Part shown: positions 12,745 through 61,691 of the stretch, in pieces
Numbering within the stretch: the first letter of the stretch is position 1
Layout of the letters: every line of letters begins with the position of its first letter
Source of the DNA: Desulfurococcales archaeon
GTDB lineage: Archaea > Thermoproteota > Thermoprotei_A > Sulfolobales > Desulfurococcaceae
Length of the DNA: 64,000 nucleotides
Assembly: GCA_027022365.1 (NCBI GenBank)
Contig: JALVYU010000026.1
Coordinates: 128,001-192,000, forward strand
Direction: 5' to 3'
Notes under the pieces: model-generated
Databases searched by the model: none
Told to the model about the DNA's origin: nothing
Seen by the model: only the letters and a program-made list of their open reading frames with translations
Program-made: the position numbers and the translations under genes

Positions 12745-12832
12745 GCGGGGGTGCCCGAGCTAGGTCAAAGGGGTCGGGCTTAGGACCCGATGGCGTAGGC
12801 CTGCGTGGGTTCAAATCCCACCCCCCGCACCA
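12745..12832 (+). tRNA. tRNA-Leu(TAG)
   Basis: GCGGGGG/CCCCCGC acceptor stem, TCGGG-CTTAGGA-CCCGA anticodon arm, long variable arm, TTCAAAT T-loop, encoded CCA. Confidence 0.97.
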
Positions 12833-12955
12833 CTCTCCTAGAGATTTTCCTCAAAGAAGCAGATAACAGCTTCTTCGACAATACACTTGGTTATTTATTC
12901 ATCTCAACCTATCAACTTATTTCTCAAATTGAGGTCTCGGGGGAGCAGGAGAGGA

Positions 12956-13319
12956 CTTTTCAGTTTTCTTGTTTGTAACATGTAGACACCCACGATCCTG
13001 TTTACCGATACATATCTTGTAATATTGATCTTTCAGTTCTATCTGTCTGTTTGTAACAAGTTCTTGATGCTGGAGCCGTTCACGCTACTACAGCTACCCT
13101 TCATGGTGATAGCAATGTATGCGAGCTACGCCGTGGATCCCGATACGCTTTCAGTTCTATCTGTTTGTAACCTGATAACACTTGTAAGCGTGAACGCACC
13201 CGCAACACTACGCCCACCACTCTTTCAGTTCTATCTGTTTGTAACTGAGCCAGCACCACTATCTGTGTTGGTGTTACGAATACATCCCAGATAATCTTTC
13301 AGTTCTATCTGTTTGTAAC
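12956..13319 (-). CRISPR. Mini CRISPR array 1: 5 repeats (consensus GTTACAAACAGATAGAACTGAAAG on minus strand), 4 spacers of 50/90/50/50 nt
   Basis: Repeats at 12956-12979 (degenerate), 13030-13057 (4-nt insertion), 13148-13171, 13222-13245, 13296-13319; 3' GAAAG end; degeneration is distal to the leader. Confidence 0.95.
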
Positions 13320-13462
13320 CGTTTTTGTTTGTTTATTTGGTTGTTTTAATATTTTATGTTTTGCTCTGGGTGCCTCCCCCAACGATCCACTGGCCCGATG
13401 AGAGCATCCATAAACTGGTTGGTATAGATCAGCGATAAAGTGTTAAGCATAGGCTAACACAG
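13320..13462 (-). promoter_or_regulatory. CRISPR leader of array 1
   Basis: AT-rich repeat-proximal part with AAAACATAAAATATTAAA promoter-like tract; inverted near-copy of 60967-61109. Confidence 0.88.
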
Positions 13463-13509
13463 TGTAAGATTAAGTGTATTTTTTCTGATGCCGAACAATC
13501 TCATGTTAA

Positions 13510-14124
13510 CCCTACTCAAAGATAAGTTCCGCTACTGATAATGATGATGATAAGAAAATACTGCTCGAAATAGAGTTCCCAGTCCTTTTAGAGAAGATTA
13601 AGATCCCTTTTGAGAGGCTGCCCGGGCTCCTTAAACTTTTAGGAGAAACAGGGGAAAACCCTGAGTTTTTAATGAAAGAGCCTGAAAACCCCGAGCCATA
13701 TTAAAAGGAGATACCAGATATTAAGGTAGGCATCCAGCACTGGAGGGGCAGACACGTACGGCTTTATAGAGCACCAAGTAATCCCTGGATAGATATTGTT
13801 AGCAAGGTCTCAGGACTGGAGTTCAGCGGTGATGGTAAAAGGGTTTACTGCTCCAAGCATGGCTGGGTAAACTACATAGTTACCTCGGACGGACGCATAC
13901 TATGTGGCTACGACTACCATACACTATTTGACCCCAACAAGCCAAAGACCTACCCACCAAGTGAGATAAAGAAAATGAAGAAGGAACTCCAAGAAACAAT
14001 GAACGAGATAGAGGAGCTAAGAGATAAGGCTTCTATGTCTATCGAGTCGTCGCCTATGAGGGATATTAATGGTAGGGAGGAGGGTGTTGATGAAGAAGAG
14101 GGAGAAGACTATGAAGAGGAGTAA
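13510..14124 (+). pseudogene. Degraded gene: CxxH...C zinc-binding-like motif, coiled coil and acidic tail
   Basis: Frame open 13510-14124 except one TAA at 13702; YCSKHGWVNYIVTSDGRILCGYDYH ... EEGVDEEEGEDYEEE*; no clear start codon. Confidence 0.55.
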
Positions 14125-14527
14125 TGGTGAAAGAGAAGGGAAAAAGAGGAAAATATACATTCCACGCTCAACAACATTCTATAAGGCTATTAGTGTCCTT
14201 AAGACACTTTTCCCTAAGGACGACTTCACGTATTGAAGCCTGAAGCATTCAACACTATCATTGAACACTTAAAGTGGGAGCTACGCTTGCACGGGTTTAT
14301 TAGTTCGGCGGCTTCTCTATTCTATGATATAATAATGGATCATCCCCTAGTCGATGGGAATAAGAGATCGGCAGTATTGATGCTTAATGCCTATCTATTC
14401 AGGAACGGGTATAGTCTTAGGGGGATTGAGGAATTGTATGAATTAGCTATAAAGGTTGCTGAGAAGAAAATAGGTAAAAACAGGTGTATTGGAATGGCTA
14501 AGGAAAAGAGTCGTGGAAAGAAAATGA
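14124..14527 (+). pseudogene. Fic/Doc toxin, frameshifted
   Basis: HPLVDGNKR Fic motif; N-terminus (KIYIPRSTTFYKAISVLKTLFPKDDFT) and C-terminus (VLEWLRKRVVERK*) lie in other frames. Confidence 0.75.
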
Positions 14528-14619
14528 CATGGGAAGAAGCAATTAGAGAAGCTGCTGAAAAAACCTACCCAATACTTGTAAAGCTGAGGGAATATGACCT
14601 AAAACATGAAAGGTGCTAG
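14524..14619 (+). CDS. Putative small antitoxin (MTWEEAIREAAEKTYPILVKLREYDLKHERC)
   Basis: ATGA overlap with the reconstructed Doc stop codon; short amphipathic helix. Confidence 0.4.
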   Translation: MTWEEAIREAAEKTYPILVKLREYDLKHERC

Positions 14620-14947
14620 GGCCTCGTGCTCTGTAAAAATCTACCTAGTACCTTCACGTATTGTGGATAGTATTTATCGGCTGGGACGCTTAGTTTTAGG
14701 TAGTGTTAGGAGAGGATTTCCTAGGCAAGTACTCTAGGTAATTGTTAAGTAATTGATATATCACAAACAATGCTTTTTAAGCTGTGATCTTATCCGAACT
14801 CTATCTATCTCTTATGTATAGCACGGATATCTCTAGTTTCTATAGTCGCCGCCTGGCATGTCAGTCTACGATCATATGATAGTATATAATATATATAGTA
14901 TATAATATGTATTGTCTACCTATATAGTTGGTGAGCCGGGTGTTTAG

Positions 14948-16579
14948 TTGTTGAACAAGTGGGTCATGGCTGGACTATTACTGGCCATTGTATTGCTACA
15001 GCAACTCTGCCCGGTTGTTCATGAGGGCATAGTCCCGGTATGTAATAACTTTATATCCGCGATAATCAAGCCCATGGGCTATTCATATACCATGGCGCAT
15101 CTCAAATTGAGGTGCCCGGTAAAGAATGTTCTCCCCATCCCTCTACCACTATTTAATACACGGATTAACGGTACGTTATGTGCACATATAAATAATACCA
15201 TGATACGAAGCATATCAACGTTCAGCTTAAAAATGATCCCTGCCAACACGCCGATGACGAAGGTGATCTGGGGAAAAGGATCCCTGAGGCTAAATACAAC
15301 TATTAATAATTCTTCATTCGAGACAATTTATCTCGAGTATCACTATAGGGTCTACAACGTCTCAAGTATAATCTCTGGGACGGGATCGGGGATTGTAAGG
15401 ATAAATATTAGTGATAACAAGTCGATTATAGACGCTATAATTAAAGCAAATAATGCAACTATGAGCTTTGTGGAAAATGCAATAGAGACTTTCATAGTAA
15501 CACCGCTCCTAGGTAGACCATTAAGCCTCAGAGTGAGACATAATACAACACTATACTTGTTGAGAGTTGAGTATACAGGGATCCCCGCAATTATATGGGT
15601 CAATTTCACCGGCAACTACAATGCGGTTAGCTGGCAATATAATGGGCTCTCCTATCCATCTGCAAATGGAAGCTTCACCCTAAATTACAAGGTTAAGTAT
15701 GCTATAGGCCTAGATAGGATCATTAATATGACCATGAATATGAGTGACAATATCTACAGACTATCTGACCTACTTCACCCTATCGAGACATACAACATTT
15801 TCCCAATAACATGGGAGGCTCAGCATATCGTAGAAATACTAGTTTCCAATTCTCTAGCCATATGTAATTCATCATCAATAGACTTAACCATAAGAACAAT
15901 CAACGGAACCTATCTCTATACAGATATTAGAATACTATATCCACGGAGTAGAGTTGACGGGGGCAATGCAGCCCTACTCATAGGTCTAAGTATCAACGGC
16001 TACGGCGCCAACACGTACTTGAGGATCAGGAAGCAATCAGTATTGCTTGACAAGTACCTTGGCAGGAACAGGACATATACTGTTGATAAGCTTATAGGAT
16101 CCCCGCTAATGCCACCTACGGATATTCATGATCTTATAAGCCCTGACAGCTACATGAAAATATATATTGGTGCGTCAGCCTCATTTATACTCCGCTATAT
16201 CCTTGGGGGCAACTGTTTCAGGACACCAAACAAGAGATGGATAAACATTACTAGGGAGTGGATCGTCGTGAGGCCATTTCCAGACGCCATAAACACAGTC
16301 CTTGTCTATCTAACGTTAACAGGATTTACACCACTTTCTAACTATAGATTCTTATATGAAAACAATAGACACATACATGTAACAAGTCCGAACACTACAA
16401 CATCTACAAGCTCCTCGACATATACTACTCCATGTACTACTAGGCACACACTCTCACCATCAACTCATAGGACGGGTAATTCCATGTACACACATATGGC
16501 CGGGTTTATCATATTTGTCACTATCTCATTAATAGCATACGCTATATTACATAAGAGAAGGGGGACATACAGCAACTAA
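14948..16579 (+). CDS. Secreted, C-terminally membrane-anchored surface protein
   Basis: Signal peptide, many N-x-S/T sequons, Thr/Ser-rich linker, C-terminal TM followed by HKRR. Confidence 0.75.
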   Translation: MLNKWVMAGLLLAIVLLQQLCPVVHEGIVPVCNNFISAIIKPMGYSYTMAHLKLRCPVKNVLPIPLPLFNTRINGTLCAHINNTMIRSISTFSLKMIPANTPMTKVIWGKGSLRLNTTINNSSFETIYLEYHYRVYNVSSIISGTGSGIVRINISDNKSIIDAIIKANNATMSFVENAIETFIVTPLLGRPLSLRVRHNTTLYLLRVEYTGIPAIIWVNFTGNYNAVSWQYNGLSYPSANGSFTLNYKVKYAIGLDRIINMTMNMSDNIYRLSDLLHPIETYNIFPITWEAQHIVEILVSNSLAICNSSSIDLTIRTINGTYLYTDIRILYPRSRVDGGNAALLIGLSINGYGANTYLRIRKQSVLLDKYLGRNRTYTVDKLIGSPLMPPTDIHDLISPDSYMKIYIGASASFILRYILGGNCFRTPNKRWINITREWIVVRPFPDAINTVLVYLTLTGFTPLSNYRFLYENNRHIHVTSPNTTTSTSSSTYTTPCTTRHTLSPSTHRTGNSMYTHMAGFIIFVTISLIAYAILHKRRGTYSN

Positions 16580-16594
16580 AATGTTACTCGCCGA

Positions 16595-16872
16595 CAAGAT
16601 TGGTTTTCCTCTTGAGAGACCTAGTAGTAGGTCTGAAGTAAAGGTATCACTAGTGCCGGTTGTGTCTACGGCCTCGCTTACACTGAACGCTGGGAGCCCG
16701 ATTCCCTGCACTTCTAGTTATCCCGTAGATCACTATTTCTAGCCACGCTTAACATCCATAATCTCGGGATCATCTTCCATTGACTTCTCGGCTACATCCT
16801 TATAGTTTTCGAGATCGGTTAGACCTCATCGCCTTGCGTCTGTTTACTAGGGACAATATCCACTTTTCTCAG
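16595..16872 (-). pseudogene. PfkB/ribokinase-family kinase fragment
   Basis: Minus strand LPAFSVSEAVDTTGTSDTFTSDLLLGLSRG (decayed DTTGAGDxF signature) and upstream frameshifted LRKVDIV..NRRKAM..EIMDVKRG. Confidence 0.7.
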
Positions 16873-17079
16873 GTGTGTCTGAGGATGACGTTGTCATTAG
16901 AGTTTGGATGAGACCAAGCCTATGGAGGAGCATGTGGTCGTGACGCCCGAGATCAGCATTCGTTCCCTAGGGCATCGCCTCGAGGGCTTCCCCAAAGACC
17001 AATAATCATCATCCTAGACTCTTATTTTCCTGTTTAGCTGTTATTTATTCTTCCTAGTAGATGCTCCGGTGTTATTGGT

Positions 17080-18228
17080 ATGGACGAATATGTGTTGAGA
17101 AGCCTGTGTCGTGCACTAGGAAGTCTCTGTAGGAGTGTTGTCGATGCACTCTATACTCCTCCTAAGAGGCTCTACTTGAGGGTTAATACATTCTTGATTA
17201 AACGGGGCGAGCTTATTGATAGATTAAGGGAGAGGGGGATAAGGGCTTACCCGGATCCTTTCGTTGATGAAGCACTGTACATTGTTCTTGAAGGCCCCTT
17301 CAGAATCGAGGCGCTCCAGAAAAAGATAGTGGTTAACAGACACGCGGCAGAATCCATATTAATGGGGGCCAACACCTATGCCCCCGGCGTTGTCAGCTAT
17401 GATCCTTTCAGGCGTGGAGACACTGTCACGATCATGGCTCCGAATATGAGGCCTGTCGCCATAGGTATCACTGTTATTGATTCCGGCCAGCTCAAGAAGA
17501 TGAAGCACGGCCTTGTAGCCAGAACTATTAAGAGCGTGTACAGTGCGCCCCCGATAAGGGAGATGCCCGAGTACAGGACGGGTTATTTCTACCCACAGAG
17601 CCTCCCAGCCATGATGGTCTCTAAACTCATGGATCCCCGCCCCGGGCAACTCATAGTCGATATGAACTGCTCCCCGGGTGGCAAGACAAGCCATGTGGTG
17701 CAACTCACAAGGGGGAGTGCCAGAATACTTGGTTTCGATCGTAATCTGGGGAAGGTGGAACGAGTACGTGAAACCCTCACTAGGCTTAAACTATACCTGA
17801 ACACAGTACTTGCCCCGGCTGATACGAGGTATATCGATGTAGACCTGCTGGGGGAGAATAGAGCCGATGCAGTACTTATTGATCCGCCGTGCACAGGACT
17901 CGGTGTTAGGCCGAAGATAGAGATAAGGACGAGAAAACCTGATCTCGTGAACAGTTATCTCTATCAGAGACAGTTCTTCAGGCCCGCGAAGAAGATTGTC
18001 AAGCCGGGAGGCAGGATAGTATACTCCACCTGCACACTCACATACGAGGAGAATGAGGGCAACATACTATATGCTGTTAAAGAACATGGACTGGAATGCG
18101 TTGATCTGGGAAGAATACCGTATGCGGAAAAACTCGTTTTCAGAGACTGTACAGCCTACAGGTTTGGGCCGCACATAGATGATATGCCGGGCTTTTTCAT
18201 CTCGGTTCTTAGGAAGCCCTCTTCCTAA
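17080..18228 (+). CDS. PUA-containing RsmB/NOL1/NOP2 RNA m5C methyltransferase (NSUN6-like)
   Basis: PUA region, QSLPAM, SPGGKT, DPPC and YSTCT motifs. Confidence 0.9.
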   Translation: MDEYVLRSLCRALGSLCRSVVDALYTPPKRLYLRVNTFLIKRGELIDRLRERGIRAYPDPFVDEALYIVLEGPFRIEALQKKIVVNRHAAESILMGANTYAPGVVSYDPFRRGDTVTIMAPNMRPVAIGITVIDSGQLKKMKHGLVARTIKSVYSAPPIREMPEYRTGYFYPQSLPAMMVSKLMDPRPGQLIVDMNCSPGGKTSHVVQLTRGSARILGFDRNLGKVERVRETLTRLKLYLNTVLAPADTRYIDVDLLGENRADAVLIDPPCTGLGVRPKIEIRTRKPDLVNSYLYQRQFFRPAKKIVKPGGRIVYSTCTLTYEENEGNILYAVKEHGLECVDLGRIPYAEKLVFRDCTAYRFGPHIDDMPGFFISVLRKPSS

Positions 18229-18775
18229 TTATTGCCGAGCCGCATAGCGGGCATAGAGTCTCCTTGGGGCTTGAGGGCACGTAGCCGCAGACCGGACAGA
18301 AAGCACGATACTTCCTGGGCTTTTTGATCCCGGTGGTCCGGAGGGGCTTGAACCCTATTCCCATATGGTACAGGAGGTTCTGGAGACTATAGTCATCGGT
18401 TATAACTACTACTGCTCTACACTTCTTTCTGAGAGTGAGGGCTAGGGCAGCGACCACTATATCCGTACGCGATAATTTAGTTAGTTCGCCTACTTTTTTA
18501 GCAGTTCTCATAGCTTCATCTATGCTTGTCGATTCAGGCTCAACAACACTGATCCTGCCTATGTTAAGCCCTAGCTCTAGGGCTTCCCGGCTCTCCCTAT
18601 CCTTAACTTCATCGCACACCTCTGCCGGGACAAAGTAGTCCGCATTACCTATATTAGCTATTAAATGATACTTAGCTAGGAGAGCCCCTGTATCAAGCAC
18701 TATACAGATCTTTTTATTGGACGAAAAAGAGCCTCCTCCTATCGAATACTTTCTTAGCCACATCTCTACGTCCAC
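18209..18775 (-). CDS. nob1: Nob1 endoribonuclease (PIN + zinc ribbon)
   Basis: VLDTG, LSRTD, ITDDYSLQN, CPVC...CPLCGS. Confidence 0.9.
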   Translation of the reverse strand: MDVEMWLRKYSIGGGSFSSNKKICIVLDTGALLAKYHLIANIGNADYFVPAEVCDEVKDRESREALELGLNIGRISVVEPESTSIDEAMRTAKKVGELTKLSRTDIVVAALALTLRKKCRAVVVITDDYSLQNLLYHMGIGFKPLRTTGIKKPRKYRAFCPVCGYVPSSPKETLCPLCGSAIIRKRAS

Positions 18776-19583
18776 TCAGCCTTATTATTCTAAAACTACG
18801 GAAATCCATCTCGACGAGGAGCTCCGAGCCCTTACCCATGGATTCCATGTTTTCCCCATCAACGTATAGGTCGACGTGGCCGTGTATTCTAACAAGTAGC
18901 TTTGATAGTCTTGACACTATTATTGGTTTAATATTTAGTTCCATAGGATTTAGGGGAGCAACACTGATCCCGCTGACAGAATACTCCATTAGGCTGCCGC
19001 CCACAGACAAGTTATAGGCGGCAGAACCGGCAGGCGTCGAGATAATTATTCCATCTCCATAGAAGAAAAGATGAGATCTCATCCCGGGAGTCACTATTTC
19101 TAACTCGAACCTCAGTACTCTCCCGTGGTCAATGCTTATGAGAGCTGATTCGTTCAATGCATAGTAGCTAGCTCTAGGTGATAGGATGTGCAGCCTGTCG
19201 TAATCCTCGATCACGAAATCCCCGTTGATAACCCTGTCAATAACAGGCTCTATATCATCAGCTCCGATGTCCTCATAGAGAATTGTACGTCTACCACAAG
19301 GTATTGGTAGGATGAGCGGTGTATTCTCGGGATACACCCTCGATATTTTCAGGAGAGTACCATCACCACCAATCCCAACTATTAGGTCAACGTACTCCCT
19401 CGCCCCACGTATTATGTCGTCAACCCAGAACGTCTCGACATTAACACCCCTCGACATAAGGGCGCGACGCACAGTCCTTGCTAGCTCTATGCATTTCTCG
19501 CTCGGCCTGTAAACGATGTAGGCTTCCTTGAAATAACTATTCCTCTGCAACGCCGATCCGTACTCCGTCGGTAAGCATATCAT
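18714..19583 (-). CDS. nadK: NAD(+) kinase
   Basis: GGDGT, ALNE, GDGIIISTPAGSAAYNLSVGG motifs. Confidence 0.92.
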   Translation of the reverse strand: MICLPTEYGSALQRNSYFKEAYIVYRPSEKCIELARTVRRALMSRGVNVETFWVDDIIRGAREYVDLIVGIGGDGTLLKISRVYPENTPLILPIPCGRRTILYEDIGADDIEPVIDRVINGDFVIEDYDRLHILSPRASYYALNESALISIDHGRVLRFELEIVTPGMRSHLFFYGDGIIISTPAGSAAYNLSVGGSLMEYSVSGISVAPLNPMELNIKPIIVSRLSKLLVRIHGHVDLYVDGENMESMGKGSELLVEMDFRSFRIIRLSGRRDVAKKVFDRRRLFFVQ

Positions 19584-19666
19584 GTCTATGATTAATTAGT
19601 AGCAGGCCTATAGTTAAACAATTACATGGAGAGATAATAAAAACTAGGATAGGGAGAGAAAACGGC

Positions 19667-20632
19667 TTGAAATGCATCGAGGTACCTAAGAAGTACGCGG
19701 AAAGAACGATAAAACTGCTTCGTGCACTGCATATTATGGATAATGAACATATTATTACTAGGAAGAATGACTATGTGTTGATTCCCGTTAAGAAGGAGCC
19801 TCCTGTGAATAGTGAGTTAAGCTCTATCCCTATGAAGTTAATAATATGTAATCCTCCTGCGAAAAAGAAGAAAGAAGTTAAGGTTCCAGCCCACGATATT
19901 GTAGGAGACATAGCAGTTGTAAGGGAGAATGTTCTCGAATACATGAGTATAGAAGAGATCGTGGAAGCACTCCGTACAACCTATCCGAGAATTAGGACGA
20001 TATATCTTAAGAAAGGAACGGAGGGCGAGTTCAGGGTTGCAGAACTTGAGCTATTATGGGGTGTCGATGATCCTTTAACTATCCATAAAGAGTATGGCTT
20101 GAGACTAAAGGTTGATCTTAAGAGAGCATATTATAATCCACGATTATCCGAAGAGCATAAAAGGATCGCTGAGAACGCTGAGGACGGGGAAACCATATTC
20201 GATCTTTTCTCCGGAATAGGAGGATTTGCAATACATATTGCTTCACTACATAAAGCCACTGTTCTGATGAATGATCTGAACCCGTACGCGGTGAGACTAG
20301 GTGTCGAGAATATACTGCTTAACAAGAGGAGGATCAGGGGGACAATAATACCTCTCCACATGGACGCTATTCTTGCTCCCAAATACTTTAGGGCTGAGAG
20401 TTTTGATAGAGTTATAGCCAATATACCGCGTTCTAGCCATTTGTTCGAGGAGATCTACTGGTATTTACTTAGGAGCAAAGGCATACTTCACCTTTACTTC
20501 CTATCCAGTATTAGCGAGCGGGACGAATTCATAAAACGATATTTCGCACGCTGGAAATTAACCGGCATTAGGAAAGTCATTGATTATGCTCCCTACGTTT
20601 TTATATGGAGAGCGGATCTCGTCAAGCCCTAG
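19667..20632 (+). CDS. trm5: Trm5/Tyw2-family tRNA methyltransferase
   Basis: DIVGDIAV, HKEYG, YYNPRLSEEH, DLFSGIGGF, DLNP motifs. Confidence 0.82.
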   Translation: MKCIEVPKKYAERTIKLLRALHIMDNEHIITRKNDYVLIPVKKEPPVNSELSSIPMKLIICNPPAKKKKEVKVPAHDIVGDIAVVRENVLEYMSIEEIVEALRTTYPRIRTIYLKKGTEGEFRVAELELLWGVDDPLTIHKEYGLRLKVDLKRAYYNPRLSEEHKRIAENAEDGETIFDLFSGIGGFAIHIASLHKATVLMNDLNPYAVRLGVENILLNKRRIRGTIIPLHMDAILAPKYFRAESFDRVIANIPRSSHLFEEIYWYLLRSKGILHLYFLSSISERDEFIKRYFARWKLTGIRKVIDYAPYVFIWRADLVKP

Positions 20633-21049: not shown

Positions 21050-21099
21050 TGTTCACCCATATTAGCATTATAGAGGGCTACTATATACTATATTCATGG

Positions 21100-25877: not shown

Positions 25878-25896
25878 ACATGTACACCTCTCCTAG

Positions 25897-52954: not shown

Positions 52955-53065
52955 TGAGTAGGCATTCCATCAAGAATTTATTTGTTATCCTTCAATTAAT
53001 TCGTATCCGGAGAAACATATGCATGTATCTATGATATAGGATAAATAGGGTAAGGTTGATGAGAT

Positions 53066-54277
53066 ATGGCAAAGCCCAGGGGACTAGTTGTAGGCCTGGA
53101 CTTGCTGTTCATGAGCGTTAACTTCAGCGCACTAACACTGTTTGCCGCACTCAGTACGTATATATCAAGCTCTATCGGTATCGATAAGTTCACCGAGTGG
53201 CTGGCGTCAGCCGTTTATAGCGCTGGTATATTCGCCGCGTTTTTCATCGGCCACTCGAGATACACGGAAGAACATCCCAGGAAGACAGTGTTCATCGCAG
53301 CCATACTGGCGTCAATACCCCAGTTCCTCATACCATACTCCATAAATCCATGGGAAGTGGTCATCTTGAGATTCATACAGGGAATGGTTATGATGGCGTT
53401 GCCGATATTCTCATCACAGGTCGGACTATTGTTTGCTGAGGCTCGACCATTAGCGCTGGGCATAATATTGTCGGGAATATTCGTCGGAGGCCTAATAGGC
53501 TCCAGTGTAGGCCCTCTACTGGCAACAAGCATAGGCTGGAGAGCCACCTACATATTGTTCGGTATCGCAATGTTAATAGCGGCATTCATATGGATCGGAC
53601 TGACGCCGTGTGACGCACTACCGGTTCACAAAGAAGTTAAGACCGAGAAACGCGTTAGTGTATGGAAAGACCCGTTCACAATCCTCTGGGGCTTCTCGTT
53701 CTTCCCAGCAATATGGATAATCTTCACACTGGCACCACTGATCTCATTCATAGTTGAGAGTATGGGTGCCCCTTGCAGCGTTAATAAGCTGTCCTCAACG
53801 GTGCTTGAAGCATCCTATCTCAGCTGGTCTATAATCATAGGCGGAGTAGCATATGCCTTAGCCCGTCGCAAAACCGGGACGCCGCACAACATGTTCAATA
53901 CGTTTGCATCAGTACAGCTGTTCTGCTTCATAGTAACGTTCGTAGGAGTACTGATCGTTATGAACTCCCGTAACGTCGCTATGTTATTGGCGGGACTAGT
54001 ACTTGTAGCAATGATTCAGGGAACAGGCCCTACATTCTGGTCGGCGCCATCAACGGCGTACCCTGAAGACCTAGCGATAAGAGCAGGATATGCTCTCGGT
54101 TTGATCTCCAACTCTGCCGCATTGGTCGGCCCTATGACATCTGTCGCAGTGCACAGCGTCACTGCTGTTTGGGGTATAATACTGTTCATGGCGATACTCG
54201 GTGCGGTACTGACATTCATTGGTATGAAGATGAAACTACCCATCGAGAAATACGGTTCTGAAAACCGAGTAGAATGA
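53066..54277 (+). CDS. MFS transporter
   Basis: ~12 TM, LRFIQG, GWRATY. Confidence 0.85.
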   Translation: MAKPRGLVVGLDLLFMSVNFSALTLFAALSTYISSSIGIDKFTEWLASAVYSAGIFAAFFIGHSRYTEEHPRKTVFIAAILASIPQFLIPYSINPWEVVILRFIQGMVMMALPIFSSQVGLLFAEARPLALGIILSGIFVGGLIGSSVGPLLATSIGWRATYILFGIAMLIAAFIWIGLTPCDALPVHKEVKTEKRVSVWKDPFTILWGFSFFPAIWIIFTLAPLISFIVESMGAPCSVNKLSSTVLEASYLSWSIIIGGVAYALARRKTGTPHNMFNTFASVQLFCFIVTFVGVLIVMNSRNVAMLLAGLVLVAMIQGTGPTFWSAPSTAYPEDLAIRAGYALGLISNSAALVGPMTSVAVHSVTAVWGIILFMAILGAVLTFIGMKMKLPIEKYGSENRVE

Positions 54278-54316
54278 ATAAGATCTACATAAACATAACA
54301 TAAACGTTTTTATCAA

Positions 54317-54880
54317 TTATTTCTCGGTCTTCATTGTTTCACGTAGGAAGAATGGGATAAATGATATACTTGAAAGTATCTCTGGAATAGCGGCGCCGGG
54401 CGGAAGATGATATGCGAAGTGAAGCATCCATATTACGACATCTATAATAGCAATAATAAACGCTGGCAAGGAAACATGGATGTAGCCATAGGATGTCAGG
54501 TAAGCAATTATCGCTAGGAAAAACGCGACCGATACGATGAAATGAATGTATCCATACGATTCATTCAGGACACCTATGAGGATTAATGTGAACCCGGCAA
54601 TACACAATATGAGCCTATTTACTGCTCTGATGCCCTGGGATAATGCGGTTGCCAAACCGAGTAGATATCCTCCGAGCGCTAGTCCCGAATTGAAGATTGG
54701 TGCTGAACATATATGCTCCATCTCGCCTAGGTCGCTGAGAGCATTTGACCATATACTAAACCAAGGTGCACGTATTACAGCCAGTATTATCGCTATGTAT
54801 GGAGCCAATATTGAGGATATTGCGATGACTTTGAAAACATTGTCTCGTGTGATGAGAAGGTGTTCGGTGGGATTGTTCAT
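54317..54880 (-). CDS. DUF998-family membrane protein
   Basis: PWFSIWSNALSDLG, IFN, HF, AIPE. Confidence 0.82.
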   Translation of the reverse strand: MNNPTEHLLITRDNVFKVIAISSILAPYIAIILAVIRAPWFSIWSNALSDLGEMEHICSAPIFNSGLALGGYLLGLATALSQGIRAVNRLILCIAGFTLILIGVLNESYGYIHFIVSVAFFLAIIAYLTSYGYIHVSLPAFIIAIIDVVIWMLHFAYHLPPGAAIPEILSSISFIPFFLRETMKTEK

Positions 54881-54892
54881 AGTTTATACCCG

Positions 54893-56113
54893 TCATATTT
54901 TTTCTATTAATAACGTTATAAGGTATGCCATCAGCACAATTGCTACTACTAGTGCAATATTGATTATTATTATTTGAAATGCTGTGGCTGGCCCCGTCTT
55001 TTTATGCACTATGAATGTTATGTCCAAGTTCTTGACAAGCTTAACCCTTGTATCGCTACTCGGTGTCTGGATGAGTATATGCTTTATTTCCTTCATAGGT
55101 ATTGGTTTCGATATCAGGACATAGTAGTTTGACGAAAAAATTTTCTTCCCATAAATTGGCGACGCGGTTGTGCCGTTCTTGTATATAATTACTAATCTGT
55201 AGCTTTGTTTTACGGGAGCGGGGCCACTAATATTCTCTTCTTCGATCACAATACGTAAAGGAGATGTAGAAGAGCCTACTAGGTTTACCCTTATTTGCTT
55301 GTCCTGATGCTGTAGGGAGACATTGATAGGTGCTGAAGATATAAATGCTATTTTCCCAATTATCTCGGGTTTTCTACGTTCTATGAGTAATCCAGTAGAG
55401 TAATGTGCTCCGAAACCCGGGTTATCAGTGGTTATCTCGACTTCCGATTCAACGAGTAAATTGGTATTATTCTTGTTATCTTTTTGGTAATACATGTAGT
55501 ATTCGTATAGTGGTGTGCCTGTTAGCATGTCGCTGTACGAAGCATAAATGAATCTCTCAACAACTTTATCGTGGCGGTAAGTGTAGGAGTATCTTGTTTC
55601 GAGGCAGTATGTGTTCTTATAATATGCTACAACCGTTGCGTTGGGCTTCGTAACCCATTTAGGCCATATGAAGGGCTTAGACGCAAGTTTTATCTGTACA
55701 TTACCTGTTATATTGGTTAGCTGTAGGATCAATGGGATCATGGTTCTGTTCTTAGTAGTGATGTATTCATGTAGATGTGCTATCTGAGCGTTTACGGTTA
55801 TACTTGGTATTCCAGCTATTTTCGTTATACTTATATTGATCAGCGATACTGATACCGGTGTAACCATATTTTTTCCTAGAGGACCTACAAGGAGCTTGTA
55901 TTTCATGATTATTTCAAATCCTTTAGGTGATACAAGCCCGAGTAGTACGGGGACAAGTGGCTTGCCCGAATATATTATTCTGAAATACCCCCGATACAGG
56001 TAGTAGCCAATGTATAGTGTACTCTTATCCGTGCCTCCATACACTAACAAATTCGTGAGACTTCCGAGAATGATCAGGGCAAGCAATAATATGGTTAAAA
56101 TGTTTTTGGACAA
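54893..56113 (-). CDS. Hypothetical secreted/membrane-anchored protein
   Basis: N-terminal signal/TM and C-terminal TM around a beta-rich domain. Confidence 0.65.
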   Translation of the reverse strand: MSKNILTILLLALIILGSLTNLLVYGGTDKSTLYIGYYLYRGYFRIIYSGKPLVPVLLGLVSPKGFEIIMKYKLLVGPLGKNMVTPVSVSLINISITKIAGIPSITVNAQIAHLHEYITTKNRTMIPLILQLTNITGNVQIKLASKPFIWPKWVTKPNATVVAYYKNTYCLETRYSYTYRHDKVVERFIYASYSDMLTGTPLYEYYMYYQKDNKNNTNLLVESEVEITTDNPGFGAHYSTGLLIERRKPEIIGKIAFISSAPINVSLQHQDKQIRVNLVGSSTSPLRIVIEEENISGPAPVKQSYRLVIIYKNGTTASPIYGKKIFSSNYYVLISKPIPMKEIKHILIQTPSSDTRVKLVKNLDITFIVHKKTGPATAFQIIIINIALVVAIVLMAYLITLLIEKI

Positions 56114-56248
56114 ATTATTCCCCTTAACTAATGGTTATTCGGTTAAGGGCCCACCTCCTCACAGCCGTCCACGGCTCGGCTATGCGGGCAAACATTCATC
56201 AATAATATTATCAATAATACTAACAATTTATTAGTGTAGGGGGACCAG

Positions 56249-57046
56249 GTGGTATCCGTGTTTAATATAGAAGGATTAAGAGTGATAATTACTGCATCAA
56301 GTAGAGGTATAGGCTTCGGTATTGCCAAGGTATTAGTCAGGGAAGGGGCCAGGGTAGTGATCTCTTCTAGGAATAAGGAGAGGCTGTATAGGGCGCTACA
56401 TGAGCTTAACAATATAGGCTCTGGAGAGGCCTATGCTGTACAGGCTGATCTCACTCGCCGAGAAGATATTGAGAGATTAGTCGAAGAATCCCTGGATAAG
56501 CTTGGCGGGCTAGATGCCATAGTCTATGTTACTGGGCCCCCTAGGCCAGGGAGATTCCAAGACCTTGGACTCGATGATTGGGAATACGGTGTCAGACTGC
56601 TGGTAATGAGCGCGGTCTGGCTTACTTATTACTCCCTGCCCTACATACTGGAGTCGGCTAATCCTTCTATAGTATATGTCACGAGCGTCGCTGTAAGGGA
56701 GCCTATCGAGACCATTGCTTTGTCTAATACGCTGAGAATAAGTGTTCATGGTCTCGTAAAGACACTTGCAAGAGAACTTGGAAGGAAAGGTGTGAGAGTC
56801 AACGCGGTGCTCCCTGGGTACATATACACGGATAGGATCAGGGAGATCGCGTCCGATAAGGCTGTGAGAACCGGGAAATCTGAAGAAGAAATAATCAATG
56901 ATATGATCAAAGAAGTGCCTCTCGGCAGGATAGGTAGACCCGAAGAAGTGGGTTATCTTGTCGCTTTCCTGCTGAGCAATTACGCATCTTATATCAATGG
57001 TGCATCTATACCTATAGATGGAGGGCTCCTTAAGTCGGTGTTTTGA
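56249..57046 (+). CDS. Short-chain dehydrogenase/reductase
   Basis: TASSRGIG, VRVNAVLPG, PLGRIGRPEE, YING..IDGG. Confidence 0.92.
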   Translation: MVSVFNIEGLRVIITASSRGIGFGIAKVLVREGARVVISSRNKERLYRALHELNNIGSGEAYAVQADLTRREDIERLVEESLDKLGGLDAIVYVTGPPRPGRFQDLGLDDWEYGVRLLVMSAVWLTYYSLPYILESANPSIVYVTSVAVREPIETIALSNTLRISVHGLVKTLARELGRKGVRVNAVLPGYIYTDRIREIASDKAVRTGKSEEEIINDMIKEVPLGRIGRPEEVGYLVAFLLSNYASYINGASIPIDGGLLKSVF

Positions 57047-57102
57047 TCGGACAATACCAGCCTAAACATTATGAGACTTGATCGGAAAACATATTTTGTC
57101 GG

Positions 57103-57152
57103 GTGCTGAGCGGCTGGTACCTGATTCTAATGATGAACAACACCTAGGCTAA
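57103..57152 (+). ncRNA. C/D-box guide sRNA (candidate, degenerate C and D boxes)
   Basis: GTGCTGA, guide GCGGCTGGTAC, CTGA, ATGATGA, 12-nt guide, CTAA. Confidence 0.5.
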
Positions 57153-57156
57153 GCAT

Positions 57157-57213
57157 GGGATGATGAGGCCGGCCTGTCCCTAGTGATGGGGAGGGCCTTG
57201 GCCTCTGCTGACC
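57157..57213 (+). ncRNA. C/D-box guide sRNA (candidate)
   Basis: GGG-ATGATGA ... CTGA-CCC with terminal stem; 51 nt from C box to D box. Confidence 0.65.
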
Positions 57214-57215
57214 CT

Positions 57216-58574
57216 TTATTTCTTCTTTCTCAGCAACGCGTAGTAAAAGCCGATGGTCCCGTGAATGTGGGGATACGCTCTCATAGTTCCGGGGAGTAGT
57301 GGTGATGGCTTGAAGGGTTTTGTTAGATGTATTAGTTCTGCATCGTCGTGGCTCTCAGTGAATTCTTTTATGATTTTTTCTCCCTCCTCGACTAGGACAC
57401 TACATACTGTGTATAGGAGTCTCCCACTTGGCCTTAACAGCCTCCATCCAGCCTCGAGAAGCTCGCGTTGAAGCCTCGTTATCTCTCTTATATCCTCGTC
57501 TCTGTACCTCCATCTCACATCAGGGTTCCTGGCCAGTGCACCGGTAGAGCTACAAGGGGGGTCTACGAGTACATAGTCCATGGTCTCTTCTCCGAGTATC
57601 TCGGGGGCTTTCCTGGCGTCTTCAACATGTATTGTTACCGCCTTCAGCGTGCCTGTTCGTTCGAGAAGCGCTCTCAACCTTTTAGCTCTATCACTGTATA
57701 TTTCAAAGCTGTGGATCTCTGATTTTAGTCCCGTGTACTCGGCCAAGTAGCTTGTCTTTCCCCCCGGCGCCGAGCATAGATCAGCAATACGTGTGCCCGG
57801 TTTTGGATCCAGCAGTTCGACCGCCACCATGCTCGACTCGTCCTGCGGAGTCAGTATCCCTGTCTCTATCAGCTTCACAGCATCTTTGCCGAGAGGGCCA
57901 CGTATTATGACCGCGTTTCTACTATATCTTCCCGGCTCGACGCTGTATCCTGCTTTTTTCAGGAATACGAGAATCGCTTTTCGGCTTGCCTTTAAAGTGT
58001 TTACTCTAAATGTCTTTGTATACTGCTTATATGTTAGAGCCAAGAATGCCTCGAGGTCTTCTCCTAGGAGATCGAAGCTATTCCTCAACGCGTAGTAGAG
58101 GCTAGGTGAAACACGGTATTCTAGAAGTATCTTCTCCTCCGGGCTTTTAGGCCTCCATTTAGTCTCCGCTATTTTATTGATATATTCTATGTTATCGGTT
58201 CTCGCACGGAGTGCCAGATACTTTTTAGCATATCTTGTCACGGTGTGTTTCAGGCTATGTCCGGCTCTTGGGTCAAGCTGTAAGACGTATGTAACAAGTC
58301 TCAGCACCGATCTCGTGATGCTATCTAACTCGTATGGTTTCTTCCCTGTAATCTCCTCTATGATCTTATCTACTATACCGAGGTTTCTGAAGACACTATA
58401 TATTATGCCCGATGCCCGCCTATCCAGAGGTGTCCCCTGGAGCTTGTACTTGATCATGGCTCTCCTGATCGGTTCCTGCACGGGTTTAATTTTCTCTCCC
58501 TGCCTTACAGCCTCGATGACAGCATATATCATTCTCTCATAGTCTTTCGCTGAAACCATTCTTTCCTCCCACAT
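57216..58574 (-). CDS. RsmB/Fmu-family RNA m5C methyltransferase with NusB-like N-domain
   Basis: FRVNTLK, QDESS, DLCSAPGGKT, DPPCS, YTVCS. Confidence 0.92.
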   Translation of the reverse strand: MWEERMVSAKDYERMIYAVIEAVRQGEKIKPVQEPIRRAMIKYKLQGTPLDRRASGIIYSVFRNLGIVDKIIEEITGKKPYELDSITRSVLRLVTYVLQLDPRAGHSLKHTVTRYAKKYLALRARTDNIEYINKIAETKWRPKSPEEKILLEYRVSPSLYYALRNSFDLLGEDLEAFLALTYKQYTKTFRVNTLKASRKAILVFLKKAGYSVEPGRYSRNAVIIRGPLGKDAVKLIETGILTPQDESSMVAVELLDPKPGTRIADLCSAPGGKTSYLAEYTGLKSEIHSFEIYSDRAKRLRALLERTGTLKAVTIHVEDARKAPEILGEETMDYVLVDPPCSSTGALARNPDVRWRYRDEDIREITRLQRELLEAGWRLLRPSGRLLYTVCSVLVEEGEKIIKEFTESHDDAELIHLTKPFKPSPLLPGTMRAYPHIHGTIGFYYALLRKKK

Positions 58575-58645
58575 ACCTATGGTCGACTATACTGTATTTG
58601 TACCTCGTCCACCACTATCTATTATGTGGAGAGGTGGTGGTTTGA

Positions 58646-59815
58646 TTGGTGTTTAAACTTGGTTTTGCGACAACATACCCCCCCACTCACTGTGGCATTG
58701 CCGAGTACTCTCGCATGCTTTTAATGGCTATGAAATCCATTATGCCCTCTATCGAGGCATATGTTTTCGCGGACAGGCTCGGCGGTGACAAGAGATTCGA
58801 CGAGTTCGCCCGTGTAAAGGTTTATCCGTCCTTTACTCATCAGGAGAGGGGTTACGGCGGATTACTCGATAAGCTTACGGAACTCGGCGGAGTCGATGTT
58901 CTTCATGTACAGCACGAGTACGGTATCTTTGGCCTGCACAACGGGTTGATCCATGCTGTTGAGGAAGCTGTCAGGGAGAGGCTTGCAAAGAAGATAGTTA
59001 TAACCATGCACACAGTTGATCACCCGAACTCGCCGAGAAAGGCGGCGATAGAGTTCCAGTCCTATCTAAATGTTTTCGATGCCGTCATCGTGCACAGCGT
59101 CCTCCAGGAATTTGAACTACAACACCAGGATATCCACCCACTAAAAATATATAGGATCCCCCATGGAACCATGTTGAACCCATACCTCTGGATGCCGAGA
59201 TTCAAGTTAATGGAGGAGCTCGGCCTCAAATCAGAGCAGCTACGGGGCTTCATAGTTGTTGTCCCGGGTTTTCTCAGGAAGGATAAGGGTTTCGACATAC
59301 TTGTCAGGGCCGTCAAGCCATTGTTGAAGGAGAGGGGTTTTACTCTTATCGTTGCAGGGGAGACGAAGGATCCTGTTCTTAGGCGGGAGCTCGAGGAGAT
59401 GATCAGGAACGGGCCCAATACGATCTTCATAGAGCGGTATCTGGCCAATGAAGAAATACTCAAACTCGTGGCCCTGGCCGACGCCGTCGTGCTACCATAT
59501 AGAGATAGGCCTAAATCCTATAGCGTGTCCGGCATACTTCATCTCTCCATGGGCGGGTTGAAGCCGATCATAGGTACTAGGACGCCTAGGCTGATCGAGC
59601 TATACCAGCACGCCCCACGCCTCACAGTCCCGCCGAAATCACCGAGGGAATTAACAAAGAAGATCAGGTGGCTGTCGAAGAACTATGACCTCGCAATAGC
59701 GTATATGGGGTCGCTATACAGCTATGCTGTGAGAACTCAGTGGCTGAGAATGGCCCGCAGGCACTTGTCCCTCTACGCCTACCTCTTGGGAGTCGACCGT
59801 GTGACCGATATCTAG
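58646..59815 (+). CDS. GT4-family glycosyltransferase
   Basis: TYPPTHCGIAEY, HVQHEYG, IPHG, DKG, LPY. Confidence 0.88.
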   Translation: MVFKLGFATTYPPTHCGIAEYSRMLLMAMKSIMPSIEAYVFADRLGGDKRFDEFARVKVYPSFTHQERGYGGLLDKLTELGGVDVLHVQHEYGIFGLHNGLIHAVEEAVRERLAKKIVITMHTVDHPNSPRKAAIEFQSYLNVFDAVIVHSVLQEFELQHQDIHPLKIYRIPHGTMLNPYLWMPRFKLMEELGLKSEQLRGFIVVVPGFLRKDKGFDILVRAVKPLLKERGFTLIVAGETKDPVLRRELEEMIRNGPNTIFIERYLANEEILKLVALADAVVLPYRDRPKSYSVSGILHLSMGGLKPIIGTRTPRLIELYQHAPRLTVPPKSPRELTKKIRWLSKNYDLAIAYMGSLYSYAVRTQWLRMARRHLSLYAYLLGVDRVTDI

Positions 59816-59838
59816 ATAACGATAAGGCGACCGGTATA

Positions 59839-60381
59839 GTGGATAAGATCATCTGTAGGACGATGTATCGCAACACCGAGATCATAGGTTTGAGGGGCGA
59901 TATTACCCGCCTAAAAGTCGATGCTATTGTGAATCCGGCGAACAGCCTGATGATCATGGGCGGCGGTGTTGCCGGAGCTATAAAGAGGCGTGGAGGAAAG
60001 ATGATCGAGGAGGAAGCGAAGAGGCACGCCCCCGTACCCGTTGGGAGAGCAGTGGTTACCCGTGCTGGCAGACTTCCAGCGAAGTACGTCATACACGCCC
60101 CGACTATGGAGAGACCGGCCATGATGATACCGGTTGAGAACGCCTATAAGGCGACCAGAGCAGCCTTGATCAAAGCACTGGATCTATCCCTCGAATCAAT
60201 AGCGTTGCCAGGTATGGGTACAGGCGTCGGAGGCTTATCGCCGAGAGAAGCAGGTAAGGCTATGGCCAGAGCGATCAAGGAGATACTCGACCTAGGGACG
60301 AAACTTAGGAAGATATATGTTGTCGACCTAAACGAAGAGATACCTCTAGAAGTATGCAGGAACATAGAGGCGGAGCCGTAG
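59839..60381 (+). CDS. Macro-domain ADP-ribose-binding protein/hydrolase
   Basis: GDIT, AIVNPANS, GGGVAGAI, VIHA, GTGVGG; start reset to GTG 59839. Confidence 0.92.
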   Translation: MDKIICRTMYRNTEIIGLRGDITRLKVDAIVNPANSLMIMGGGVAGAIKRRGGKMIEEEAKRHAPVPVGRAVVTRAGRLPAKYVIHAPTMERPAMMIPVENAYKATRAALIKALDLSLESIALPGMGTGVGGLSPREAGKAMARAIKEILDLGTKLRKIYVVDLNEEIPLEVCRNIEAEP

Positions 60382-60383
60382 AG

Positions 60384-60650
60384 ATGCGGGTGGTTGTCAA
60401 GTACTTGTTGTGGATGCGGGAAAAAGCAGGGACGAACAAGGAGGAGTATATCTTAGAGGAGAACAGCACAATCGAAGACCTGCTCGAGAAAATAATCAGT
60501 AAGCACGAGAACCTAAGAAAACACCTCGCTAACCCATTTACACGAGAAAACCCAGTTCTAATAACAATTAACGGCCGCACAGCCCGGCCAGGAGCTAGAC
60601 TAAGAGAAAACGATACAGTAACGATAATGCCGCCAGTATCAGGAGGATAA
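60384..60650 (+). CDS. moaD: MoaD/ThiS ubiquitin-like sulfur carrier
   Basis: beta-grasp pattern, ING, C-terminal PPVSGG. Confidence 0.88.
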   Translation: MRVVVKYLLWMREKAGTNKEEYILEENSTIEDLLEKIISKHENLRKHLANPFTRENPVLITINGRTARPGARLRENDTVTIMPPVSGG

Positions 60651-60655
60651 AATAA

Positions 60656-60761
60656 TGGAGCCGCCGGCGGGATTTGAACCCGCGACCACCGGCTATCCCG
60701 ACGGGCCTGATACGCCGAACCGCTTACAAGGCCGGCGCTCTACCGGCTGAGCTACGGCGGC
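60656..60761 (-). tRNA. tRNA-Thr(TGT) with 30-nt intron (60695-60724)
   Basis: GCCGCCG stem, CCGGC-CTTGTA[intron]A-GCCGG, TTCAAAT, encoded CCA; 76 nt after splicing. Confidence 0.94.
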
Positions 60762-60966
60762 ACAAACCATTAAAAACAAAATCCGGAAACACCTTTAAAG
60801 AATTTTTCCACAAGAACAAAGATGCCCGCCCACCTAAAACATTAATTACCTAAACAAACTCCTCTTCCACAAAGGTACTAGACAAATCACTACTGTCGGT
60901 AATGGATTATTTCCGGGATGTGTTTTGTGCTTGTTTATTTCTGGGAATATGTGATTGTTCTTGATT

Positions 60967-61109
60967 CTGTGTTAGCCTATGCTTAACACTTTATCGCTGA
61001 TCTATACCAACCGGTTTATGGTGGCTCTCACCGGGCCAGTGGATCGTTAGTGGAAGCACTCAGAGCAAAACATAAAATATTAAAACAACCAAATAAACAA
61101 CAAAGAACA
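60967..61109 (+). promoter_or_regulatory. CRISPR leader of array 2
   Basis: Inverted near-copy of 13320-13462, directly 5' of the first repeat. Confidence 0.88.
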
Positions 61110-61432
61110 GTTACAAACACAAAGAACTGAAAGCAATACATATTGGGTCGTATAACCCACGACGGTGAAGACATTCACAATACTTGTTACAAACACAAAG
61201 AACTGAAAGTGTATGGGTACCACTTCGGATTGATTGGCTTCTCCCCTCTGATCCTTGCCTTCGTTACAAACAAAAGAACTGAAAGTTATTCATGAAACAC
61301 CCAGAACTAGACACAATCACAAAATGAAGAAGGTGTTACAAACAGGTAGAACTGAAAGTAGAATCGCCGACGCCGAGACCAGCATACTCGAGGACAAAGC
61401 CGTGGCTAAGTTACAAACAGATAAACTGAAAG
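61110..61432 (+). CRISPR. Mini CRISPR array 2: 5 variant repeats (GTTACAAACA-var-AACTGAAAG), 4 spacers of 52/53/49/51 nt
   Basis: Repeats at 61110-61133, 61186-61209, 61263-61285, 61335-61358, 61410-61432. Confidence 0.95.
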
Positions 61433-61603
61433 ATGAATGCTTGATGTAATAATTCAAATAGTTTTATGTTATTCTATGAACTCTAAACTCTAGGTAACAA
61501 TTATCTCTGAGGTACTTTTCTACGTAGAATTTGAGAAATAAGGGATAACCAAGTGTATTGTCGGAAAAGTAGTTGTCTTCTTGTAGGAGAGAGGATTTGC
61601 TCG

Positions 61604-61691
61604 TGGTGCGGGGGGTGGGATTTGAACCCACGCAGGCCTACGCCATCGGGTCCTGAGCCCGACCCCTTTGACCAGGCTCGGGCACCCCCGC
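61604..61691 (-). tRNA. tRNA-Leu(CAG)
   Basis: Differs from the tRNA-Leu at 12745 at only 3 of 88 positions; anticodon CAG; encoded CCA. Confidence 0.97.

Follow-up and report, generated by a model that had tools for sequence, protein, structure and literature searches.

Some genomes hold multiple CRISPR loci, for example S. solfataricus with its loci A-F. Passages of PMC4390879 describe for Sulfolobales and other crenarchaea several dispersed CRISPR loci, which fall into leader and repeat families and include arrays remote from the cas genes, for which a single set of cas cassettes works in trans. Here we analyze two small arrays of this kind in a Desulfurococcales archaeon (genome G000, a 1.74-Mb draft of 44 contigs). 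They lie in a window of 64,000 nt (contig C26, positions 128001-192000; positions without a contig name are those of the window), at two different transfer RNA (tRNA) genes for leucine in inverted orientation. Each set of tRNA-Leu, trailer, five repeats with four spacers and 143-nt leader is called a cassette. We favor, with a probability of about 65%, the view that both cassettes are genuine chromosomal remote arrays of the host system, served in trans, which arrived recently by recombination at a hot spot.

Like the dispersed crenarchaeal loci, these arrays belong to leader and repeat families with several arrays per genome, some of them far from cas genes, have an 8-nt tag ending in GAAAG, sit in variable DNA that also holds toxin-antitoxin genes, and occur together with type III effectors. 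They differ in that all four arrays of their family are tiny (4-5 repeats; 8 in the metagenome allele L025), that two of them are placed symmetrically at inverted tRNA-Leu paralogs bounding an invertible segment, and that the linked type I-D operon appears decayed. The Sulfolobales plasmids pNOB8 and pKEF9 also carry small CRISPR loci, and integration of these plasmids at tRNA genes, in intact or degenerate form, is frequent, as stated in passages of PMC4390879. The resemblance extends to small size, virus-matching spacers and, for cassette 1, a position beside a tRNA with degenerate foreign genes. In our case, however, there is no plasmid backbone, integrase or attachment (att) site duplication, the native flank is kept and cassette 2 has no genes.

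Virus-borne mini-arrays of SPV1 and SPV2 were reportedly described by Medvedeva et al. in 2019. An excerpt of PMC11656645 defines viral mini-CRISPR arrays as holding 1-2 spacers inside a viral genome. Their repeats match host arrays, they rely on host Cas proteins and their spacers are directed against mobile elements, as here; the present arrays differ by their 4 spacers (7 in L025), their full leaders and their chromosomal location, with no identifiable virus or plasmid genome around either cassette. Finally, casposons and CRISPR-associated transposons also place CRISPR-related DNA downstream of a tRNA, close to it and at a constant spacing. Unlike them, the unit described here has no Cas1, transposase, terminal inverted repeats or target-site duplication, and no guide matches the site. 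Moreover, with the array pointing toward the tRNA, it is not the tRNA that occupies the leader position.

Two related arrays at inverted tRNA-Leu paralogs

The 24-nt repeat GTTACAAACAGATAGAACTGAAAG has six matches in the window at no more than 3 mismatches, versus none in 100 shuffles; the layout of five repeats and four spacers per cassette comes from a looser repeat parse. Starting at the leader, the repeats of cassette 1 occupy 13296-13319, 13222-13245, 13148-13171, 13030-13057 (28 nt) and 12956-12979 (degenerate), separated by spacers of 50, 50, 90 and 50 nt. Those of cassette 2 occupy 61110-61133, 61186-61209, 61263-61285 (23 nt), 61335-61358 and 61410-61432 (23 nt), with spacers of 52, 53, 49 and 51 nt. 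The 28-nt repeat (unit 13030-13147) carries a 4-nt GACA duplication, which, like the 90-nt spacer, is also seen in the L025 allele. Since the repeats end with CTGAAAG, both arrays run from the leader toward the tRNA.

The same module is thus present twice in inverted orientation at two tRNA-Leu genes, as proposed in the initial annotation made from the sequence of the window. The two leaders are near-identical (93.5% over 139 nt), 14 of 165 aligned leader positions being different (91.5% alike), while all eight spacers are distinct and none has a second copy in the genome. The tRNA-Leu(TAG) and tRNA-Leu(CAG) genes differ at 3 of 88 positions, in the anticodon and at two D-loop positions (96.6% identity by BLAST), and their 3′ 51 nt are identical. 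The identity of the 3′ halves, noticed from the start, is ordinary isoacceptor similarity; the same pair of tRNA genes has no cassette in the congeners G004 and G005. A conserved trailer had also been proposed; this holds for two short blocks, 12874-12894 with 61545-61565 (20 of 21 positions) and 12917-12930 with 61528-61541, but the remainder of the trailers is not alike. Genome-wide, the trailer block occurs only in the two cassettes.

Both cassettes are recovered from independent sequences. The metagenome contig L025 contains cassette 1 together with 1.3 kb of adjoining DNA (98.95% identity over 1620 nt), and cassette 2 is covered by contigs from four runs of four studies, among which one X1 contig spans 61071-61629, from the end of the leader through array and trailer into the tRNA, with 0 differences. 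Some ambiguous joints, possibly from other organisms, were left unused: the one from 60761 to 61604 in X1 (with a 26-nt side) and those starting from 61133 in X4 and X9 (with undetermined bases in between).

Host machinery of the array family

The genome has four copies of the leader, with 89-95% identity: the two of the cassettes (C26 141320-141462 and 188967-189109) and two on contig C31 (433001-433145 and 436673-436818). At no more than 5 mismatches the repeat gives 15 matches in the genome, all within the four corresponding arrays, which we refer to as family A. By sequence comparison, one leader-plus-array module is present in four dispersed copies, and the cassettes are two of these. The two C31 arrays, C31a and C31b, diverge from a 3.5-kb core (L001 11146-14652; C31:433146-436652) that encodes three proteins: Cas6, Csc1/Cas5 and a 610-aa protein in which a Cas3′ helicase fragment is fused to Csc2/Cas7. 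The Cas6 assignment relies on two Pfam matches under the cut-off, on the best ten family-bearing Atlas matches, all of them Cas6, and on a best structural TM of 0.92, while the sequence search of PDB gave no match. Csc1/Cas5 of type I-D matches TIGR03159 (E 2.5e-12) and the fusion protein TIGR03157 (E 9.8e-32). No Cas10d and no cas1 were found in the core, which looks like a decayed type I-D operon. Adjoining it are genes for Cas10/Csm1 (E 1.2e-65), three RAMP proteins, Csx1 and a ring-nuclease-like protein, making up a type III-A-like locus. The divergent C31 leaders overlap the first codons of the two genes beside them by about 25 nt.

The family A arrays thus display repeats, a shared AT-rich leader, cas genes associated with the same repeat, and spacers matching mobile elements. 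Sequence relationships show that the cassettes belong to a repeat and leader family whose predicted Cas6 and effector genes are in the genome. The cassettes had been described as cas-less: this stands for the window, where no match to five Cas families was found, but not for the genome, where cas6, the type I-D remnants and type III genes are located on C31, and cas1, cas2 and cas4 on C39. The expected cas locus with the same repeat was indeed found, the C31 arrays surrounding cas6, and the proposed use of Cas proteins in trans is supported by the matching genes on C31 and C39. On the other hand, the prediction that every leader copy would abut a tRNA-Leu gene failed, two of the four being at the cas locus, where Rfam detected no tRNA in the 20 kb around the arrays; the initial annotation had itself named such copies as evidence against its proposal.

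A second repeat family (family B, repeat GAAACAATAAACAAAAATTGAAAG) comprises four arrays of 13-25 repeats. The cas1, cas2 and cas4 genes on the 6.3-kb contig C39, which holds the sole cas1 of the assembly, and a cas7 gene at C31:459460 are both located beside family B arrays. The leaders of family B have their last ~30 nt in common with those of family A. Spacers measure 37-49 nt in family B (66 of 66) and 49-53 nt in 13 of the 15 inter-repeat intervals of the four family A arrays, the exceptions being cassette 1's 90-nt spacer and, in C31a, a stub of 10 nt. Apart from these two families, a different, GC-rich repeat occurs in about 60 copies on contig C1 (540-4201), which is itself GC-rich (62.5%) and whose source is probably another organism in the bin.

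Cassette-free sites in relatives

The congeners G004 (about 90% DNA identity to G000) and G005 (about 92-94%) provide the empty-site alleles that had been called for. G004 has the same gene order as G000 and neither of its tRNA-Leu sites carries a cassette: its tRNA-Leu(TAG) is followed, 300 bp further on, by a homolog of a 543-aa gene, and a private stretch of 142 bp joins the tRNA-Thr flank to tRNA-Leu(CAG). G005 shows the same short cassette-free flanks, with the interior inverted. At site 1, G000 has 1.86 kb (12860-14717) in place of 267 nt of native flank, and at site 2, 780 nt (60823-61602) in place of 142 nt. Neither displaced native stretch occurs anywhere in the G000 genome.

No full-length leader was detected in the 40 relatives searched, and neither G004 nor G005 contains DNA homologous to the C31 cas island. 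Among the 30 best tRNA-Leu loci in 63 genomes of the family, an array within 1.5 kb was seen only at the locus of G000 itself and at none of the 29 others. An exact scan with a 33-mer of the leader gave no match in genome_contigs or viral_contigs and one metagenome contig, which is the L025 allele of cassette 1. The same type of scan with a 19-mer of the trailer gave no match in viral_contigs and two matches in unrelated bacteria (an Algicola metagenome-assembled genome and a Psychroserpens record), taken as chance in 596 billion bases according to our own arithmetic. Comparison of these sites shows both cassettes to be recent, lineage-specific gains.

Junctions at the tRNA genes

The cassettes had been viewed as docked at tRNA 3′ ends, following the logic of integrase att sites. 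For cassette 1 this view does not stand: tRNA-Leu(TAG) is directly followed by native flank for 27-37 nt (z 7.5 versus G005, a value reached by 0 of 500 shuffles), BLAST homology to G005 running to position 12859. The flank of tRNA-Leu(CAG) is ambiguous in the same test (z 0.8-3.2). No partial tRNA-Leu copy exists in the window, where BLAST with tRNA-Leu returned whole tRNA genes only, and none of the three genomic matches to the integrase family PF16795 (C26:537533, 525380 and 17419) falls in C26:128001-192000. The marks of a tRNA-att element were not found, be it a direct repeat of the tRNA 3′ end at the far end, an integrase at the border or, for cassette 1, foreign DNA at the tRNA 3′ end itself.

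Nor do the cassettes have the properties of casposons. Cas1 is absent from the unit, its borders show neither inverted repeats nor flanking direct repeats, and no target-site duplication was seen. No spacer matches the tRNA-Leu region; spacer S2 weakly resembles the 3′ end of the tRNA (14 of 18), which was judged to be chance. For a CRISPR-associated transposon, the search for TniQ gave no match, but its control matched in no genome either.

Two simple scenarios for the origin of the pair were set aside. A tRNA-anchored duplication is disfavored by the tRNA-proximal ~40 nt, which are just ~63% alike. The splitting of one double-array module by the 48-kb inversion was rejected on paper, since it would bring the leader, and not the trailer, next to tRNA-Leu(CAG).

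An array trailer beside a tRNA 3′ end is also encountered elsewhere in the family. In G010, of another genus, an array of ~14 repeats (L007 1545-2512, contig C4) ends 35 nt from the 3′ end of a convergent tRNA-Ser(TGA) gene; a second array of this genome (L011 1-794, contig C8) has tRNA-Leu(GAG) about 430 nt upstream of its leader. A crude estimate gives a probability of ~1e-4 for at least two trailer-beside-tRNA cases among 11 independent arrays, under a model that ignores the scarcity of intergenic space. This may be a mild trend in the family, and it fits the description, given in a part of PMC4390879, of Sulfolobales tRNA flanks as dumping grounds for foreign DNA.

An invertible segment and a probable hot spot for insertion

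The two inverted tRNA-Leu genes bound a housekeeping segment of ~48 kb (12832-61604; C26:140832-189604), measuring 48.8 kb in G000 versus 43.6 kb in G005 (G005:C5:124201-167767). Compared with G000 and G004, its orientation is reversed in G005, G002 and G003. In the inverted arrangement the anticodon remains next to the outer flank, the 3′ flank having moved along with the interior; the breakpoints therefore lie within the identical 3′ parts of the tRNA genes, between anticodon and 3′ end.

The same sites also receive other DNA. In G003, tRNA-Leu(TAG) contains a 3.6-kb insert or remnant (L022 about 6614-10364; G003:C23) with a partial tRNA copy, a serine recombinase of the resolvase/invertase type (PF00239, E 2.6e-31) and an N-terminal integrase fragment overlapping the tRNA. 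This element harbors the sole homolog of the gene remnant beside leader 1 (76% over 250 nt, L022 6947-7195). Another gene, at 14948-16579, encodes a 543-aa protein rich in N-x-S/T with a C-terminal membrane anchor. It is placed outside the cassette 1 insertion, because G004 and G005 share it. Its presence at the tRNA-Leu flank in G000, G004 and G005 and absence in G002 and G001 mark an earlier insertion at the same flank. Judged from these comparisons, the tRNA-Leu pair is a hot spot that bounds an invertible segment and takes up predicted integrase-bearing elements.

Spacers, targets and population variants

The L025 allele of cassette 1 has both leader-proximal and both distal spacers of G000, plus three between them (8 repeats and 7 spacers), from which we infer that G000 lost three internal units. 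One of the spacers present only in L025 matches C26:521252-521300 of G000 at 49 of 49 positions. This target lies in an open reading frame (ORF) of a 14.5-kb element at a tRNA-Ala gene (C26:511756-526293; L026 1756-16293), which encodes an archaeal integrase, a DnaA-like replication protein and many ORFs without family match. In G004 and G002 this site is unoccupied, and the overlap of ~52 bp suggests the att site of the element. G000 thus carries the element and no longer the matching spacer.

Two spacers of the window also match element-like genes. The 90-nt spacer S3 of cassette 1 matches one contiguous stretch of G001:C117 (84% over 89 nt; also 71/83), and is therefore a genuine double-length spacer; its target is an ORF beside a weak match to a Zot-like ATPase. 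Spacer S4 of cassette 2 has two matching copies in G050 (81% over 59 nt), in an ORF with a viral/archaeal nuclease domain. Identities of the S3 and S4 matches are 81-86% overall. The other six spacers of the window gave no match in the collections searched, and both arrays gave none in the phage collection; the DNA adjoining leader 1 and the stretch from tRNA-Thr to leader 2 found no match among plasmids. The matches obtained show the spacers of these arrays as immune memories of viruses and integrated elements.

Variation was also observed in cassette 2. In an X2 contig the leader is joined to repeat 2, exactly 76 nt (repeat 1 and spacer S1) being missing, which could reflect a loss in X2 or a recent gain of S1 in G000. 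In an X9 contig, 74 nt are missing across the unit of repeat 4 and spacer 4, readable as loss. All population differences seen can be explained by loss of repeat-spacer units. The small size (4-5 repeats), the heterogeneous repeats, including those of 23 and 28 nt, and the 10-nt stub fit arrays that are now mostly losing units.

Surroundings of the cassettes

The features are listed in Table 1. As initially annotated, cassette 2 has no cargo and fills the space between tRNA-Thr and tRNA-Leu. The tRNA-Thr gene was assigned by eye from the TGT of its anticodon loop. Cassette 1 had been said to be followed by decayed genes resembling those of mobile elements. This is true of the frame next to leader 1, which is 5′-truncated and bears a stop codon also found in L025, but the Doc-family gene looks intact and the 543-aa gene is also present in G004 and G005. 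In the remnant, neither the 139-aa frame nor its 64-aa upstream part matches a Pfam, PHROG or NCBIfam family, and the 139-aa frame has no relative among phages (tblastn) or in IMG/VR. The Doc gene marks the end of the 1.86-kb block specific to G000, the native flank resuming at about 14718.

Table 1. Positions of the cassette components, their neighbours and the family B arrays (window numbering unless a contig is named)
Feature	Position	Strand	Basis or remark
tRNA-Leu(TAG)	12745-12832	+	ARAGORN; Rfam 57.8 bits; outer boundary of cassette 1
Native 3′ flank between tRNA and cassette 1 ('X-side' flank)	12833-12869		homologous to cassette-free sites of congeners
Trailer 1	12874-12930		two blocks common only to cassette 2
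CRISPR array 1, 5 repeats/4 spacers	12956-13319	-	transcription toward tRNA
Leader 1, 143 nt	13320-13462	-	sequence comparison with other leaders
Gene remnant, single frame	13510-14124	+	no start codon; in-frame TAA 13702-13704
Doc-family toxin gene	14218-14619	+	TIGR01550 E 1.1e-10; Pfam Fic; phrog_577
Intron-bearing tRNA, inner neighbour of cassette 2	60659-60761	-	Rfam 65.1 bits; missed by ARAGORN
G000-specific 144-nt stretch, native tRNA-Thr flank to leader 2	60823-60966		no homolog found
Leader 2, 143 nt	60967-61109	+	sequence comparison with other leaders
CRISPR array 2, 5 repeats (4 sequence variants)/4 spacers	61110-61432	+	transcription toward tRNA
Trailer 2	61433-61603		shared blocks from comparison with trailer 1
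tRNA-Leu(CAG)	61604-61691	-	ARAGORN; Rfam; outer boundary of cassette 2
Family B array	C26:578559-579641		
Family B array	C31:456405-457151		
Family B array	C31:492673-494288		
Family B array	C39:1462-2422		

Discussion

As remote arrays of the host system, the cassettes would function as follows. The final ~45 nt of each leader include an AT-rich, TATA-like stretch from which the array would be transcribed toward tRNA-Leu, and the transcript would be cut by the Cas6 encoded on C31. The resulting CRISPR RNAs (crRNAs), with the 8-nt tag ACUGAAAG, would load into a type III complex encoded in trans; we assign them to this neighboring complex because the type I-D operon appears decayed. The cassettes would have entered the lineage after its split from the sequenced congeners, through recombination in the 3′ flanks of the inverted tRNA-Leu paralogs, where 142-267 nt of native intergenic DNA were replaced, and these insertions would not be integrase events at a tRNA att site.

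Several observations weigh against this interpretation. Plain recombination does not account for three of them: the shared unit starts at nearly the same distance from both tRNA ends, +42 nt in cassette 1 and +39 nt in cassette 2, the trailer blocks are private to the two cassettes, and the tRNA-proximal ~40 nt are far less alike (~63%) than the leaders (91.5%). At diagnostic leader and repeat sites, cassette 1 groups with C31b and cassette 2 with C31a (12 of 165 differences in each pair, versus 14 of 165 between the cassettes), which does not fit a simple copy from cassette to cassette in this alignment; gene conversion among leader copies could blur such pairing. Given the gap in spacer length between the families and the single cas1, the resident adaptation module may not serve family A arrays. 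The protospacer with the 49-of-49 match reads in the sense of its ORF, so that a type III complex would miss the mRNA. Finally, the sole RNA run listed gave ~5% of sampled words, and transcription and Cas6 processing are predictions only.

Part of these difficulties would be relieved if the cassettes were relics of two related integrated plasmids or viruses, which had their own small CRISPR loci, entered at tRNA-Leu and were then whittled down. Leader 1 abuts the truncated gene whose sole homolog belongs to the G003 element at tRNA-Leu(TAG), with the Doc gene next; the trailer blocks private to the cassettes may stem from the backbone of an element, two separate arrivals would agree with how little the tRNA-proximal flanks resemble each other, and the frequent integration of Sulfolobales CRISPR plasmids at tRNA genes, as passages of PMC4390879 have it, offers a precedent. 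We nevertheless hold such an origin to be unlikely, in view of the native flank kept between the tRNA and cassette 1, the lack of a partial tRNA-Leu copy and of an archaeal integrase in the window, and the missing gene cargo of cassette 2. Furthermore, searches of the phage, plasmid and IMG/VR collections gave no match to the DNA flanking the leaders, to the arrays or to the trailer block, and the leaders are near-copies of those at the chromosomal cas locus.

The nearly equal offsets would find another explanation if the trailer-array-leader unit were a discrete non-autonomous mobile cassette homing ~40 nt downstream of tRNA-Leu with the help of a trans-acting enzyme, whether Cas1-Cas2, an integrase, another recombinase or an RNA-guided system. 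Two copies at paralogous sites, both sites being cassette-free in the nearest congeners, a sharp common inner boundary (CTGTGTTAGCC) and the trailer blocks confined to these copies speak for it, as does the homing of casposons and CRISPR-associated transposons next to tRNA genes reported in portions of PMC5137440, PMC4779613 and PMC11656645. As a mobile module of immune memory, with a mechanism akin to casposon and transposon homing, it would then give the first demonstration that a CRISPR array moves as a unit to tRNA flanks, and would bear on how arrays are seeded at new loci. Yet this idea of a tRNA-Leu-targeting mobile cassette, put forward in the initial annotation, is now very doubtful. 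Half of the leader copies are at the cas locus, with no tRNA in 20 kb (Rfam); neither a mobility gene nor terminal inverted repeats or a target-site duplication mark the unit as a discrete element, and native DNA was replaced rather than cleanly interrupted. No spacer is directed at the tRNA-Leu region, the 29 other tRNA-Leu loci have no array, the leader 33-mer recurs in a single further public contig, an allele of cassette 1, and the sole cas1 is on C39. As for an assembly artefact or chance similarity, which the annotation had also considered, the draft nature of the 44-contig assembly with its probable foreign contig C1 would be the only reason to suspect it; the 14 differences in 165 leader positions, the distinct spacers, the coverage of both junction types by L025 and by contigs from four runs of four studies, and the failure of 100 shuffles to produce the repeat make it hardly credible.

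Taken as remote arrays of the host system, the cassettes are ordinary, apart from their unusual symmetric placement. They would provide an example of how CRISPR arrays spread in a small archaeal genome, with one module at four places, two of which are at the tRNA-Leu pair where the ~48-kb inversion breaks and integrating elements enter. Their added value comes from the clean comparison of cassette-free sites and of the inversion between relatives. They would also offer a clean natural case in which the loss of a spacer goes together with carriage of the matching integrated element.

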